A stretch of DNA of 64,000 bases. It comes from Candidatus Methanomethylophilaceae archaeon (GTDB lineage: Archaea > Thermoplasmatota > Thermoplasmata > Methanomassiliicoccales > Methanomethylophilaceae). Numbering within the stretch: position 1 is the stretch's first letter; the number at the start of each line of letters is the position of its first letter. The position numbers and the translations under genes were made by a program. This document shows, piece by piece, positions 18,669-23,956 of this stretch. The notes below the pieces were generated by a model, which was given only the letters and a program-made list of their open reading frames with translations, was not told the DNA's origin and did not search any database. The DNA is taken from contig JBMNQN010000005.1 in assembly GCA_050944155.1 (NCBI GenBank), positions 26,398 through 90,397 of the forward strand. Reading direction: 5' to 3'.

Positions 18669-19679
18669 GTGCCCGCTTTGGAAATACCGGAAGAGGACGC
18701 GTCATCCGTGATACCCATGCTGATTTCTTCCGGAATCGCCGACCGCACCGCAAAAATCTCTTCGAGAGGAAATTACAGAATAGTGCCGATTGTCAGAGAA
18801 AGAATGCCGGACGCGGAAGCGCTGGGATACGGTATGACCGAAACCGAAGCGCATTCTCTGGAAAGAAGAACTCCCATGGAGCGGATTTACGACATGCTGG
18901 CACATCTTCCTTCCGAGGTCAGGGACAGCCTTCCCAGAAAGTGGGAATACGTGGGAGAAATCGTCATTCTCAAACTCGGTAGTCCGTGCGTTCCGTACAG
19001 AGAAGAAATCGGAAAAGCGTACGCTTCCGTACTCGGAGCGTCGACGGTGTGTGCGGACATCAAAGGAATTTCAGGGGAATTCAGAAGACCCAGTACCGAA
19101 ATAATATACGGCAGCACTACGGAATCGGTAAGGCTGGAAAACGGAATACTGTACGATTTCGACGTAACGGAAGTGATGTTTGCTTCCGGAAACACGGACG
19201 AAAGAATGCGCATGAGAAACACCGACTGCAAGGGGGAAACGGTTGTGGACATGTTCGCGGGAATAGGCTATTTCACGCTCCCCATAGCCAAGTATTCCGG
19301 CGCGAGAAGGGTATTCGCGTGCGAGAAAAATCCCGATTCCTACGGATACCTTCTGAAAAACATAAAACTCAACGGAGTATCCGACACAGTGATTCCGATT
19401 CTGGGTGACAACCGGTACATTCCCGGGAAGAAATTTGCCGATAGGATACTCATGGGATACGTTCAGAAAACTTCGGAATTCGTTCCCAAAGCATTGGAAA
19501 TGATACGTCCGGGGGGAATAATCCATTACCACGATACTTTCGCGGTCGGAACCCAGGAACGGAGAATAGACGAAATATTTTCCGGACTGTGCGGATACGA
19601 AGTACTGGGTATAAGGGAAGTGAAATCCTTCGCCCCCTCCGTTTCCCATTATGTGGCGGACATCAGAATTTCAGACTGA
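18669..19679 (+). CDS. Trm5/Taw2-family SAM-dependent tRNA modification enzyme (more like Taw2)
   Basis: MFASGN..ER.R, VDMFAGIGYF, CEKNP, ADRILMG, IIHYH; lacks the Trm5 NLP motif. Confidence 0.85.
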   Translation: MPALEIPEEDASSVIPMLISSGIADRTAKISSRGNYRIVPIVRERMPDAEALGYGMTETEAHSLERRTPMERIYDMLAHLPSEVRDSLPRKWEYVGEIVILKLGSPCVPYREEIGKAYASVLGASTVCADIKGISGEFRRPSTEIIYGSTTESVRLENGILYDFDVTEVMFASGNTDERMRMRNTDCKGETVVDMFAGIGYFTLPIAKYSGARRVFACEKNPDSYGYLLKNIKLNGVSDTVIPILGDNRYIPGKKFADRILMGYVQKTSEFVPKALEMIRPGGIIHYHDTFAVGTQERRIDEIFSGLCGYEVLGIREVKSFAPSVSHYVADIRISD

Positions 19680-21173
19680 TTCTCCGGAACTGCAGGCCGT
19701 CAGCATAGTGTTCATGTTGCTTCTGTAAGATGCGGGGTCCGATTCTATCAGCATTTTTGCGAAAGGAACCAGATATTCCATGAAACCGGTTTCTTCCTTC
19801 GACATGGTGAAGGGGTATTTCGCCGAAGGATCGCATGCCGCGAGAAACGCCGCGGAAATCGAACGGGAGCGGCTGTCCTTTGCGAAAGAGCGGTCCAAAG
19901 AACCCAGAACGAGTTCCGCGCCTCCGACCTTTGCGGCCTTTGCCAAAGAGTCGCACATAACCGTAATCGGACCGGGTCTGCTGAAGGTCGGCAGAGCACC
20001 GGAAACATCCGCCAGAACATATCTCTTTCTCGCATCCGCCAGAACGTCCGAGGGAACGCTTTTGGAAACGTCTCCCATTTCGGCCGCAATCTCCGCCGAA
20101 GTGCTGAGTTCGATTATTTTGGAGTAATTGTTTTCCCAAAGGGCCGTCAGAGCTTCGTTGGATCTTTCCGTTCTTATGACCACGGGAACGGGATTCGCCG
20201 ACAGGAATCTGCGGAGGGATTCGACATCCTCTGCGGGTCCTTTGAGTTCGGACAGGAATTTTTCCAGATTCGAACCGTAATTCTGTTTTCCTATTATGTA
20301 CGTGGCGTCGCCGCTGCTTTTCAGATCTCCCATTCCGGTTTTCATAACCGATTCTATGAGGCTTCTGTCGGTAGTTTTGCCGGCGGCATACTTTTTCAGG
20401 TCTTCCCCGGTAATCGGAACTCTTCCGTCCTCTCCTTCTTTACGGTACTTGTGTACGACCGCCACCTCGAAATCGTCCAGAGGATCGACGGCCGATATTC
20501 TGGAAATGAGGAACTGAAGGGTGGAAATGTCTTTGGCGCATTCGGAACAGATACGGACTGTTTCGCCGAGGGATTTTATTTTGATACGGACGGACGCAAG
20601 GGCTTCGTGTCCGCAGTCCAATCCGTCGTTTTTGAATTTATACGGTGTTTCGCCGAACGTATCGCAGAGATAATCTTCCGGCATGTTCCTGGTATCCGAA
20701 CATACCAGGTCGTCTCCGAAAGAGTAGAGATAAAGGTGGTTTTTCTTGACGAACGTGTTGTAAAGCATCAGGCGCTTTTTCGGGTCGTTGTGATACTGAC
20801 AGCCAATCAGCTTGTCCGCACCCACCGTTCCCCTGACGGCATAAGAAATTTTTTCATCGCCCAGTTTGGCGGTTGCGAGCAGAGGAATGTTTCCGGCGGC
20901 GGCGAGAGAAATCGTTCCCGCATACGCTCTCGCTATGTCGTCTCCGCCTTTCGACGCACTCTTTATCAGCGTATCGGCGTCGCCCGCATGAGTCGAAATA
21001 ATATCTATTTCTTTGAAAACTTTGTCGAAATGGCATTTCCTGCAGTTTCCCGCGCACATGGGTCTCAAAATCCCGGGATTCGCCGCCAGCTCCGAAGAAC
21101 AATCCAAGAGTTCGTCTTCCAATCTTTTGGAAGTGTGGCGTACACCTCTCATCCTGACGCGTTTCCTTGCCAT
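19671..21173 (-). CDS. Conserved hypothetical protein with Cys/His clusters (500 aa)
   Basis: Long ORF with a GGAGGT RBS; CAGNCRKC and CGH...ICSEC motifs. Confidence 0.75.
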   Translation of the reverse strand: MARKRVRMRGVRHTSKRLEDELLDCSSELAANPGILRPMCAGNCRKCHFDKVFKEIDIISTHAGDADTLIKSASKGGDDIARAYAGTISLAAAGNIPLLATAKLGDEKISYAVRGTVGADKLIGCQYHNDPKKRLMLYNTFVKKNHLYLYSFGDDLVCSDTRNMPEDYLCDTFGETPYKFKNDGLDCGHEALASVRIKIKSLGETVRICSECAKDISTLQFLISRISAVDPLDDFEVAVVHKYRKEGEDGRVPITGEDLKKYAAGKTTDRSLIESVMKTGMGDLKSSGDATYIIGKQNYGSNLEKFLSELKGPAEDVESLRRFLSANPVPVVIRTERSNEALTALWENNYSKIIELSTSAEIAAEMGDVSKSVPSDVLADARKRYVLADVSGALPTFSRPGPITVMCDSLAKAAKVGGAELVLGSLDRSFAKDSRSRSISAAFLAACDPSAKYPFTMSKEETGFMEYLVPFAKMLIESDPASYRSNMNTMLTACSSGESV

Positions 21174-21248
21174 ACAACCTCCAACGGCGAAGTAGGTAAT
21201 AATCTGCTTGGTCAGCGGGCTGAAATAATCGGTCGGGGATTACCGTAC

Positions 21249-21746
21249 ATGGATTGTGAGGAACTGCACGAAAGAAACGTAAGGGAGTTCCTGGCAAAAC
21301 CCCCGTTCGGATACCGGAACATTCCCTCCGGACAAATCGGACTGTTCGCTTCCGCTTTCGTGCACGACAGCTATTCCAACGAATCGGGAGCAATCAGCAA
21401 CGAACGCCTCGAATTTCTCGGTGACGCGGTTCTGGAACTGGCGGCCTGCCGTTACGTGTACTCCCTGACGGATTACGGCGAAGGAAAAATGACCGATTTC
21501 AAGCAGAGCATAGTATGCAACCGCAGAATTTCGGAATCTTTGATTTCCTACGGTTTGGATATCGACGGCATAATGATGGTGGGCAACGGTCACAGAGATT
21601 AGGTTACCGGAATTCCGATTGTGAACGAAAACATGAGGGCGGACGCTTTTGAGGCACTGCTTGCCGCAATATATCTGACGTACGGTTTCGAAGAAGTTTT
21701 CAGAATAGTCCGGGATATTCTGATCGATCCGAAAAGGAACGGTTAA
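21249..21746 (+). CDS. rnc: Ribonuclease III catalytic-domain protein (no dsRBD) with an in-frame TAG at 21600-21602, probably pyrrolysine
   Basis: HDSY...NERLEFLGDAVL before the TAG; in the same frame after it, VTGIPIVNENMRADAFEALLAAIYL...G, then TAA at 21744-46; 165 aa in total. Confidence 0.88.
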
Positions 21747-21756
21747 CTAAGACACG

Positions 21757-21765
21757 TATATAAAA
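21757..21765 (+). promoter_or_regulatory. TATA box of the AMP-pathway operon
   Basis: TATATAAAA about 22 nt upstream of the GTG at 21787. Confidence 0.55.
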
Positions 21766-21786
21766 AGAGAAGGAGATTTCGGGGAC

Positions 21787-22710
21787 GTGACGGCAGCAGA
21801 GAAAACGGCAGAAGACATAAAAAGCATGAAAATCCGCGGTGCGGGGAGAATTGCCCGCGCATCCGCCGCGGCGATGGGAGACTTTGCGGAAAATTACACG
21901 GGCGGCAGTCTGGAAGATTTCCGTAAAGAAGCCGGGAAGAACGCAGAGATACTCATAGCCTCCCGTCCCACTGCGGTATCCCTCTGGAACGGCGTCAAAG
22001 CGTCGATGAAGGGACTCGAGGACGCTTCCGATCTGAACGAGGCGAAGGAACTCGTACGCAGAAACTCGGAAGCATTCGTCAAAGCCTCGTCCGAAGCCGT
22101 GGACAGGATAGCGAAAATAGGCGCCAAGAGAATCGAATCCGGCGACGTCGTGATGACCCACTGCAACAGCAGTGCGGCTCTGGGCGTAATCAAGGAAGCG
22201 CACAGGCAGGGAAAGGAATTCGAAGTCTACGCGACCGAGTCCCGTCCATGGAGGCAGGGAATACTGACGGTCAGAGAACTTGCCGCCGAAGGAATCCCCG
22301 TCACGATAATCATAGACAGCGCCGTGAGAACCGTTATGAAAAAGACCGACAAAGTTTTCGTGGGAGCCGATACGATAACTTCGCACGGCGCACTGGTAAA
22401 CAAAATCGGGACGTCACAGCTGGCACTTGCTGCCCACGAAGCCCGCGTTCAGTTTTACGTATGCAGCGAAACGTACAAATTTTCGCCTGCGACGATTTTC
22501 GGAGATCTGGTCACCATAGAAGAAAGAGATACCGGGGAAGTGGTGCGCGACGGAGAGATCCCCGATTCCGTGAAGATATTCAATCCTGTGTTCGACAGTA
22601 CTCCGGCGGCATACATCGACGCAATCATAACCGAAGTGGGGGTAATCCACCCCGGCTCCGTTTACGAGATAATGGTCGGACAACTGGGAAGAAATATATT
22701 CGGAGAGTGA
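21787..22710 (+). CDS. Ribose-1,5-bisphosphate isomerase (eIF2B-like)
   Basis: IRGAG.IA, RPTAVSL, THCNS, ESRP..QG, VGAD, NKIGT, NPVFD.TP; sits next to rbcL and AMP phosphorylase. Confidence 0.92.
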   Translation: MTAAEKTAEDIKSMKIRGAGRIARASAAAMGDFAENYTGGSLEDFRKEAGKNAEILIASRPTAVSLWNGVKASMKGLEDASDLNEAKELVRRNSEAFVKASSEAVDRIAKIGAKRIESGDVVMTHCNSSAALGVIKEAHRQGKEFEVYATESRPWRQGILTVRELAAEGIPVTIIIDSAVRTVMKKTDKVFVGADTITSHGALVNKIGTSQLALAAHEARVQFYVCSETYKFSPATIFGDLVTIEERDTGEVVRDGEIPDSVKIFNPVFDSTPAAYIDAIITEVGVIHPGSVYEIMVGQLGRNIFGE

Positions 22711-22714
22711 AAAT

Positions 22715-23956
22715 ATGACGGAATATTCTTATCTGCATTTGGGAGACGAAGCGGACCCGCATACCGACGTGGTCTGCAGATATAAAGTAACAACCGACCT
22801 GCCAATCGAAAAGGCGGCGGAAGCCATAGCGGCGGAACAGTCCACCGGAACGTGGACGGGAATATCGACCCTCACGGGCTCCATTCTGGAAAAGTACGGC
22901 GCAAGAGTTCTTGCCATAGAGGGAAACGAAGTAACCGTGGCGTTCCCGGACGCGGATTTCAGCATCGATGTGGGAGGAGTTCCGCAGATACTCAGCGTCA
23001 TTGCGGGAAACCTCTTCGGCCTGGAAGCGCTGAAAGGCGTAAGGCTCGAAGACGTCGAATTTCCGACGAGCATAAAGTCCCAGTACAAAGGTCCCAGGTT
23101 CGGAGACGAAGGACTCCGTAAAATACTGAACAGACCCGAGAAGCCGCTTATCGGAACCATAGTCAAACCGAAGATAGGGCTTTCTCCGAAGGAAACCGCC
23201 AAGTACGTTTACGAAGCGGGCGCGGGAGGGCTCACCAACGGCAAGGACGACGAGACGCTCGTGAATCAGAAATTCTGTCCCATGCAGGACCGTACCGTCG
23301 CAATCGCCGAATCCCTGGACAGACTGGCGTCAGAGGGCCACAGAATGATTCACGCAATCAACGTGAGCACAAACGGCGACAAAATTCTGGAAGTCGCGGA
23401 AAAAGCTCAGGAATGGGGAGCCTCGCAACTCATGGTGGACGTTATCACCTGCGGATTCGGAGCGGTTCAGGCTCTGGCCGAAGACCCGTCGATAAAGGTC
23501 CCGATTCACGTTCACAGAACCATGCACGGAGCCATGACCAAAAATCTGGACCACGGAATCGCCATGCTTCCTATGGTGAAACTGGTAAGAATGTGCGGAG
23601 GAGACGCTCTCCACATAGGAACCCTCGGAGCCGGAAAGATGACCGGCGACGTGAAAGGCGACCACGACAACCTGGACGCATGCCTCGATCCGTCCCAGCC
23701 CTACAGAAAAGTCATGCCCGTATGTTCCGGCGGAGTTTATCCCGGAATGCTGGAGAAGATGGTGAAATCTTCCGGATTCAACGTTCAGATACAGGCGGGA
23801 GGAGGCGTTGCCGGCCATCCCGGAGGAGTGAGAAAGGGCGCAATGGCAATGAGCCAGGCGATAGATTCCATATTCGACGGAATCCCCCTGAAAGAATACG
23901 CAAAAACCCACAAAGAGCTGTCTCAGGCTCTCGACAAATGGGGACTGAAAGAATGA
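22715..23956 (+). CDS. rbcL: RuBisCO large subunit, form III-like
   Basis: EQSTGTW, GN, KPKIG, KDDE, HRTMHG, HIGT..GKM, SGG, QAGGG. Confidence 0.9.
   Translation: MTEYSYLHLGDEADPHTDVVCRYKVTTDLPIEKAAEAIAAEQSTGTWTGISTLTGSILEKYGARVLAIEGNEVTVAFPDADFSIDVGGVPQILSVIAGNLFGLEALKGVRLEDVEFPTSIKSQYKGPRFGDEGLRKILNRPEKPLIGTIVKPKIGLSPKETAKYVYEAGAGGLTNGKDDETLVNQKFCPMQDRTVAIAESLDRLASEGHRMIHAINVSTNGDKILEVAEKAQEWGASQLMVDVITCGFGAVQALAEDPSIKVPIHVHRTMHGAMTKNLDHGIAMLPMVKLVRMCGGDALHIGTLGAGKMTGDVKGDHDNLDACLDPSQPYRKVMPVCSGGVYPGMLEKMVKSSGFNVQIQAGGGVAGHPGGVRKGAMAMSQAIDSIFDGIPLKEYAKTHKELSQALDKWGLKE

Follow-up and report, generated by a model that had tools for sequence, protein, structure and literature searches.

The window, a stretch of 64,000 nucleotides from a Candidatus Methanomethylophilaceae archaeon (GCA_050944155.1, contig JBMNQN010000005.1), carries on its forward strand an RNase III-domain gene (21249..21746) whose reading frame is interrupted by a single TAG. 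The frame starts at ATG 21249, runs for 117 codons to the TAG at 21600..21602 (codon 118, ...MVGNGHRD-TAG-VTGIP...), continues for another 47 codons and ends at a TAA (21744..21746), which gives 165 codons when the TAG is read through. The first catalytic signature, NERLEFLGDAVL (21399..21434, with E52, E55 and D59), lies 5′ of the TAG, and the second catalytic motif, ADAFEALLAAIYL (21639..21677, with D132 and E135), lies 3′ of it, both on the forward strand. An earlier note on this DNA, made from the letters alone, had described a frame interrupted by TAG118 with both catalytic motifs intact, and translation of the frame through to the TAA confirmed this description. The same note had claimed that termination at the TAG costs essential acidic residues; indeed, D132 and E135 are present in the product only if TAG118 is read through and would otherwise be lost. 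As shown below, codon 118 is polymorphic, with CAG (Gln) as the second form, and the TAG is probably decoded as pyrrolysine (Pyl).

When the two parts were searched separately, the profile PF14622 (Ribonucleas_3_3) matched that 5′ of the TAG (E 1.3e-14, profile positions 4-83 of 128) as well as that 3′ of it (profile positions 93-125, E 3.9e-05), and it spanned the read-through product as a single stretch (residues 32-158, E 1.1e-22). Therefore, both halves form one domain and belong to one RNase III gene, as the note had proposed. Both PF14622 and PF00636 scored above their gathering scores. The identification of the gene is further borne out by comparison with proteins of solved structure, where the nearest sequences were the Drosha RNase III domains (E 6e-17) followed by Thermotoga maritima RNase III (E 1.5e-14), and by an AlphaFold model built with 60 homologues (mean pLDDT 93.8, pTM 0.90), for which the best Foldseek match was the T. 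maritima RNase III 1o0w (E 5.4e-07, TM 0.72). The core of the first signature, NERLEFLGD, corresponds to residues 51-59 of the read-through product. In an alignment of 60 sequences, R53-D59 were invariant and E52 was at least 90% conserved; on the other side of the TAG, F134, E135, A136, A140 and G146 were invariant, all of them being kept in the window, and D132 was at least 90% conserved.

RNase III of any class is a homodimer that cleaves double-stranded RNA (dsRNA) in a Mg-dependent reaction. Canonical bacterial RNase III consists of the nuclease domain together with a dsRNA-binding domain (dsRBD) at its C-terminal end, whereas the protein studied here ends at residue 165 and has no dsRBD. 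Consistently with this architecture, the NCBIfam equivalog profile for bacterial RNase III, TIGR02191, gave 97.6 bits against a cut-off of 166.25 and was covered only over positions 12-138 of 219. The dsRBD profile PF00035 was not found in the archaeal relatives either. Orthologues were present in every one of the other 15 genomes of the genus and in 31 of the 36 genomes searched from the family (Methanomethylophilaceae), and the database names of the close homologues are Candidatus Methanomethylophilaceae; in other families of the order, 3 of 24 genomes had an RNase III match, and all three matches were weak. Homologues are thus common within the lineage but not outside it, and the sequence comparison indicates that an RNase III without a dsRBD is conserved in Methanomethylophilaceae. 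The protein shares its catalytic domain, signature motif and fold with bacterial class 1 RNase III and with Mini-III, which likewise lacks a dsRBD according to the RNase III review (PMC3867540). However, no chain named Mini-III occurred in the 32 sequence matches or among the Foldseek matches listed, and the nearest bacterial proteins, which are about 37-43% identical to the archaeal RNase III, do carry a dsRBD.

All or part of the stretch is contained in 20 listed public runs from 13 studies of digester, landfill, bioreactor and sludge metagenomes. We compared the contigs of four of these runs (X9, X10, X11 and X15) over window positions 21100-21900; the comparison concerns assembled contigs and not raw reads. 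Position 21600 was T in the DNA runs X9 (word depth 751.7) and X11 (word depth 20.2), which come from separate studies, and C, giving CAG (Gln), in the DNA run X10 (depth 32) and in the RNA-library run X15, where a single contig of 209 nt (depth 2.8) covers the site. The earlier note had named a sense codon at 21600 as evidence against its reading; such a codon does occur in X10 and X15, but X9 and X11 retain the TAG, and the site is polymorphic. The CAG haplotype of X10 differed from the window in just the one base of codon 118 over 801 bases. The haplotypes of X9 and X11 showed one and two further differences from the window, respectively, all 5′ of the start codon; the TAG haplotypes differ at further upstream sites, and therefore the TAG allele has had time to diversify.

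The same two alleles were found in a public protein collection, where the TAG-cut product of 117 amino acids (aa) is present on 29 contigs, compared with eight for the 165-aa protein with Q118. The 90% cluster of the 117-aa product had one other member, namely the 165-aa Q118 protein, which is otherwise identical to the read-through product. In a metagenome contig collection, neither an exact pattern around codon 118 nor a protein-based scan gave a match. The presence of C instead of T in some runs could be taken to mean that the TAG is a sequencing or assembly error of the metagenome-assembled genome. Yet T was recovered in two further runs from separate studies, at the depths given above, and the truncated product was called on 29 contigs; as far as can be judged from assembled contigs, an error is excluded, and we give this explanation practically no weight. 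We conclude that the TAG is a genuine allele, and the commoner one, coexisting with a sense allele in the same species.

The direction of the change can be judged from related species. The protein of the nearest other species (82% identity) has Pro at position 118, and the six same-genus orthologues compared at the DNA level have CCG, CCT or CCC at this codon. Since the route CCG to CAG to TAG takes two steps and the routes in which CAG is derived take three, CAG is probably ancestral, on grounds of parsimony, and the TAG would then have arisen by a C-to-T transition.

The earlier note had asked whether pyl genes are present elsewhere in the genome. The assembly comprises 1.04 Mb in 27 contigs and is 92% complete. 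(For a methanogen this is a very small genome; the members of the genus have 0.9-1.3 Mb, and the run records point to digesters, landfills and bioreactors and not to animal guts.) One contig (C25:1-4575, L042) carries, in this order, the 3′ end of mtmB, pylT, pylS, pylB, pylC and pylD. The products of four of these genes scored above the curated cut-offs: PylS (274 aa, C-terminal domain type) with 273.3 bits against 178.15, PylB with 420.1 against 348.2, PylC with 300 against 248.3, and PylD with 203.7 against 150.05. Upstream of pylS, between this gene and mtmB, lies a tRNA-like gene of 71-72 nt (C25:636-706) with the anticodon CUA. Neither ARAGORN nor Rfam (the latter run on C25:62-4081, which covers the gene) called it as pylT. 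It has a compact cloverleaf-like fold with CUA in the anticodon loop; since the z-score of the fold is only -1.28, its identification as pylT rests on position, anticodon and shape. The mtmB fragment (C25:1-477, profile positions 292-450) is cut by the contig end, and because only this 3′ part was assembled, the amber codon of mtmB is not in the assembly; the contig perhaps breaks inside mtmB at a repeated copy. Neither of the methyltransferase genes mtbB and mttB was found, at a genome completeness of 92%. Within the family, PylS was above the cut-off in 84 of the 121 genomes searched; among these 84 are 14 of the other 15 members of the genus.

To estimate how often TAG ends genes, open reading frames (ORFs) of at least 100 codons were called crudely, using a codon-usage score and greedy removal of overlaps. 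This call missed the RNase III fragment, whose longer upstream start clashed with an antisense ORF. Of the 887 ORFs called, 665 ended in TGA, 213 in TAA and nine, that is about 1%, in TAG. One of these nine is pylB, the sole one backed by a protein family; two have coding-like sequence past the TAG, and six have no Pfam match; four of the latter six were also searched in Rfam, again without a match. The TAG of pylB lies two bases before the ATG of pylC, and its read-through would add 19 codons overlapping pylC.

Because the genome has the full pyl machinery and mtmB and TAG hardly ever ends its genes, Pyl-tRNA(CUA) is the most likely reader of UAG118. The proposal of the earlier note that the gene encodes a Pyl-containing RNase III is therefore still the most likely reading, given the nine TAG endings among 887 ORFs and the published detection of Pyl in 12 of the 15 expressed M. 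alvi proteins predicted to contain it (Kivenson et al. 2024, bioRxiv 10.1101/2024.09.30.615893). In this strain, codon 118 would have changed from CAG to UAG by the transition proposed above. Read by this tRNA, UAG118 would yield the full-length nuclease, its Pyl lying in a variable loop that precedes the helix with D132 and E135 by 14 residues, whereas some ribosomes may stop at the codon and release a 117-residue fragment devoid of the second pair of catalytic acids. Pyrrolysine at this position would have no special role, and the substitution would be tolerated as TAG already acts as a sense codon in this lineage. We consider it likely that UAG118 is read in this way, perhaps with some termination, and that it represents a young, nearly neutral CAG-to-TAG change whose product is active.

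The properties of position 118 fit such a substitution. We compared 30 orthologous loci, including that of the window, by tblastn; each of them gave one continuous alignment, and none showed evidence of a frameshift. Where the window has codon 118, the other 29 orthologues are free of stops and carry P, S, V, R, E, K or G. In the model, residue 118 is in a non-helical segment (109-126; mean pLDDT of the block 111-120, 92), and the following helix (127-145) carries D132 and E135. The column is thus variable and the segment non-helical, in agreement with the placement of the TAG in a variable loop between the motifs that the earlier note had made. In bacterial RNase III, RBM4 is a short non-conserved loop of the nuclease domain that touches RNA. 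An RNA-contacting region of such kind is mentioned in the RNase III review (PMC3867540).

The orthologues contain further in-frame TAGs. The internal in-frame stops among the 30 loci were TAG118 of the window and a TAG at codon 35 in one same-genus genome (G005, L011), with no internal TAA or TGA; an apparent internal TGA in G023 proved to be its terminal stop. TAG35 is derived from TCG (Ser), which is kept in five relatives. When the changes in G005 were polarised against four relatives, three synonymous and two conservative replacement codons were found 3′ of TAG35, which is too few for a conclusion. In addition, codon 163 is TAG in six of 16 same-genus orthologues (L008, L009, L010, L011, L012 and L014) and CAG in G009 (L013). 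TAG163 is followed by S/A-R-I and, four codons on from the TAG, by a conserved TAA at codon 167. We had considered the conservation of these codons and of the TAA as a sign of translation past TAG163 and dropped this argument, as the sequence resembles the A/T-rich promoter of the next gene. In this genus, the RNase III gene has thus acquired a TAG at three unrelated positions (35, 118 and 163) and no other type of lesion, a pattern that suggests that TAG is tolerated in the gene. Among the ORFs in the relatives' loci, six of 37 ended in TAG in the same genus and four of 34 in other genera; five of the six same-genus cases were the RNase III orthologue itself, and this small sample says little about genome-wide use.

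We also looked for other genes of this genome with an internal TAG. Sixty TAGs have open frames on both sides, and for five of them the frame is the best of the six on both sides: RNase III, an aquaporin (MIP) on contig C16, an MscS-like protein, a surface-repeat protein and an ORF without a family. Two of the five, RNase III and the aquaporin, have the TAG inside a single Pfam match. As a control, the same filter was passed by 18 TAA and 58 TGA sites. Twenty of these 76 sites, picked by eye for a late first start codon, were examined with Pfam: 12 had different families on each side, four had a family on one side only, three had none, and one was a disrupted gene. We conclude that, at most of the passing TAA and TGA sites, two neighbouring genes in the same frame meet. 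The disrupted gene, a xanthine/uracil permease (G000:C20:6806-8098, L055, where G000 denotes the present genome), has a TAA inside one Pfam match (stretch 91-389), at position 301 of the stretch examined, and its N-terminal part reads like a shifted frame.

The aquaporin gene (G000:C16:14497-15114, L038:198-815) has an in-frame TAG at codon 124, before the second NPA motif, and one Pfam stretch spans it (residues 2-197, E 1e-41). An orthologue was not found with this query in nine of the 15 same-genus genomes, and of the six genomes that have the gene, three have lesions in it: a TAA in G014, pieces with a TGA in G012, and pieces with TAG/TAA in G009. The gene is decaying across the genus, and we downgraded its TAG, which had been considered as a second proof of read-through. 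Two further long frames with an internal TAG and coding-like sequence on both sides were observed at G000:C1:45341-46930 and G000:C15:2192-3823; one encodes an MscS-like channel with the TAG in its N-terminal extracellular part, the other a surface protein showing a weak Flg_new repeat.

Several of these results speak against decoding of UAG118 as pyrrolysine, or at least reduce what can be derived from the intact frame. The sole RNA-library contig that spans codon 118 has CAG and not TAG. The ratio of nonsynonymous to synonymous substitutions (dN/dS) 5′ and 3′ of the TAG, a comparison suggested in the earlier note, is uninformative as the nearest CAG haplotype differs at that base only and the next relative has 82% protein identity; the mutation is so recent that conservation of the downstream part says nothing. 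Of the 54 ways in which a single base change can create a stop in this gene, 18 lead to TAG, so that the two disruptions found in it would both be TAG by chance with a probability of about 0.11; these are weak statistics. TAG may keep some terminator function, given the end of pylB and the case of M. acetivorans discussed below. The xanthine/uracil permease is probably a pseudogene in a shrinking genome, and the aquaporin TAG may be a true nonsense mutation in a pseudogene rather than the codon of a Pyl protein; the genome and the genus contain decaying genes. An internal TAG alone is no proof of read-through. Finally, no RNase III match was found in five of the 36 family genomes searched, although each of the five is 97-99% complete, and RNase III may accordingly be dispensable. 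Genomes from at least four other genera of the family had no RNase III match at all.

These points can be combined into a different explanation, in which CAG changed to TAG as an ordinary nonsense mutation, or the Pyl-containing protein is made but inactive, and RNase III is starting to decay in part of the species, within a lineage whose small genome is shrinking. For so young a mutation, an intact downstream part is expected either way. In favour of such a loss are the size of the genome (1.04 Mb, 92% complete), the presence in it of at least one clear pseudogene and of an aquaporin gene that is decaying in the genus, and the relatives without RNase III; moreover, UAG terminates part of the time in M. 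acetivorans (PMC12626013). Against it, the TAG allele is the majority form (29 contigs versus eight) and appears at high depth in independent studies, and the orthologue is present in each of the 15 other genomes of the genus, free of TAA, TGA or frameshift lesions. The combination of a complete pyl operon with TAG at the end of about 1% of the ORFs is, in addition, the published signature of lineages that translate TAG. We therefore regard loss of function as unlikely, though it is the most serious competitor of the near-neutral pyrrolysine substitution.

The earlier note had gone further and proposed that the availability of Pyl switches RNase III on and off, linking methylamine metabolism to RNA turnover. 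In such a scheme, the ratio of full-length to truncated RNase III would track the supply of Pyl-tRNA, which would tie dsRNA processing to methylamine metabolism, and selection would favour the TAG. For M. acetivorans, UAG read-through governed by supply and demand has been described, giving a long and a short form of a Pyl protein (PMC12626013), and TAG is the commoner allele here. The 117-aa fragment also retains the region of the signature motif. This region forms much of the dimer interface in RNase III, and shortened subunits might in principle hamper full-length ones. It is thus physically plausible that the share of truncated RNase III depends on supply. Nevertheless, the TAG is not conserved, with no stop at the aligned position in any of the 29 other orthologues, the Gln allele coexists in the same species, and the TAGs of the orthologues stand at the unrelated codons 35, 118 and 163, as drift predicts. 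No structured element follows the TAG: a search for an element resembling a pyrrolysine insertion sequence (PYLIS) was abandoned when the 104 nt from the TAG onward proved to fold less stably than shuffled sequence (z = +1.55). With so few ORFs ending in TAG, the Pyl system is probably constitutive, as has been argued for Ca. M. alvus (PMC4153887). The proposed switch is thus supported neither by conservation nor by the population data nor by RNA structure, and we consider it very improbable. Equally doubtful is a variant in which the amber allele is not neutral and has become the majority form through an RNase III output dependent on Pyl-tRNA, with a 117-residue product that might pair with the full-length protein and damp dsRNA cleavage when Pyl is scarce. 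If this were so, a stop codon still segregating in nature would have been put to use as a metabolic rheostat on an RNA-processing enzyme.

The RNase III gene stands by itself, with a divergent ORF on one side and an IF-2B-family gene on the other. The divergent ORF (window 19671-21173, reverse strand, 500 codons) has no Pfam match at E values up to 1e-05. Directly 3′ of RNase III, the region 21787-23956 on the forward strand contains the IF-2B-family gene (PF01008, E 5e-89) followed by a gene for the RuBisCO large subunit, which is of the form III type (PF00016 and PF02788). This pairing of IF-2B-family and RuBisCO genes is typical of the archaeal route of AMP or nucleoside salvage.

The near-neutral substitution of Gln by Pyl that we favour can be compared with several known systems. 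Pyrrolysine has reportedly arisen by neutral evolution in the tRNA-His guanylyltransferase of Methanosarcina, according to Heinemann and colleagues (2009), who are reported to have tested the activity of the Pyl form experimentally. That case resembles ours in that Pyl occupies a non-conserved, non-catalytic site of an RNA-processing enzyme and was reportedly ascribed to drift in a host that decodes Pyl; it concerns, however, another enzyme in another archaeal order.

Within the family studied here, Pyl in proteins other than methyltransferases has been in print since 2014 (Borrel et al., PMC4153887), and a generalisation followed in 2024 (Kivenson et al., bioRxiv 10.1101/2024.09.30.615893). 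In Ca. M. alvus, 1.6% of the stops are TAG, compared to about 1% here, and 16 non-methyltransferase Pyl proteins were predicted; as in our case, the in-frame amber codons are located in housekeeping genes whose homologues in relatives lack them, and the authors argued that in such a background a newly arisen amber codon is stable (PMC4153887). No RNase III is among the 16 proteins of Table 7 of that paper. Kivenson et al. proposed a Genetic Code 34 for recoded genera that include Methanomethylophilus, Methanogranum and Methanoplasma. Their proteomics found Pyl in 12 of the 15 expressed proteins of M. alvi that had been predicted to contain it, and the mass spectrometric detection of Pyl at TAG positions is described for M. 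alvi and M. burtonii only; no PYLIS was found, according to the preprint (bioRxiv 10.1101/2024.09.30.615893).

The gene described here shares several features with the 'Category 1' internal-TAG genes of that preprint: the organism belongs to the family of M. alvi, one of the two organisms validated by proteomics, it has a complete pyl cluster and almost no TAG terminators, and the TAG lies within a conserved domain with homology on both sides, at a singleton Pyl position that is not common to the relatives (bioRxiv 10.1101/2024.09.30.615893). It differs in three respects. RNase III, or a ribonuclease, is not mentioned in the main text of the preprint, although the supplementary tables of 1903 predicted proteins may list one; both the sense (CAG) and the amber allele are present in one species; and the habitat records of this organism are digesters, landfills and bioreactors and not the gut.

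The possible partial termination at codon 118 has a model in RdmS of M. acetivorans, likewise the product of a non-methyltransferase gene with an internal UAG, which coexists in long and short forms (Shalvarjian et al. 2025, PMC12626013). In that organism, UAG gives rise to both read-through and terminated products, whose ratio was proposed to follow the supply of and demand for Pyl. M. acetivorans, however, keeps more TAG codons, and UAG is demonstrably ambiguous there, whereas the proteomics of Methanomethylophilaceae argue for consistent read-through (PMC12626013; bioRxiv 10.1101/2024.09.30.615893).

To summarize, the RNase III gene with TAG118 is a further example of the recoding already described for Methanomethylophilaceae. 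It involves no new mechanism, as non-methyltransferase proteins with Pyl have already been published for this family, with support from proteomics; what it adds is a natural pair of Gln and amber alleles in one species. The enzyme itself, an RNase III without a dsRBD that is conserved in most genomes of an archaeal family, has been little studied, and our literature search found no paper on RNase III in Methanomassiliicoccales. For annotation, the consequence is immediate: gene callers that use translation table 11 split or truncate the gene, as illustrated by the 29 public contigs carrying the 117-aa fragment, and annotation of Pyl-decoding Methanomethylophilaceae should treat TAG as a sense codon. 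That a single species has CAG in some copies of an otherwise identical gene and an amber codon at this position in others corresponds to the step that the neutral-emergence model predicts for pyrrolysine codons and that is rarely seen directly, and with the two natural alleles the Gln, Pyl and truncated forms of the enzyme could be compared cleanly.

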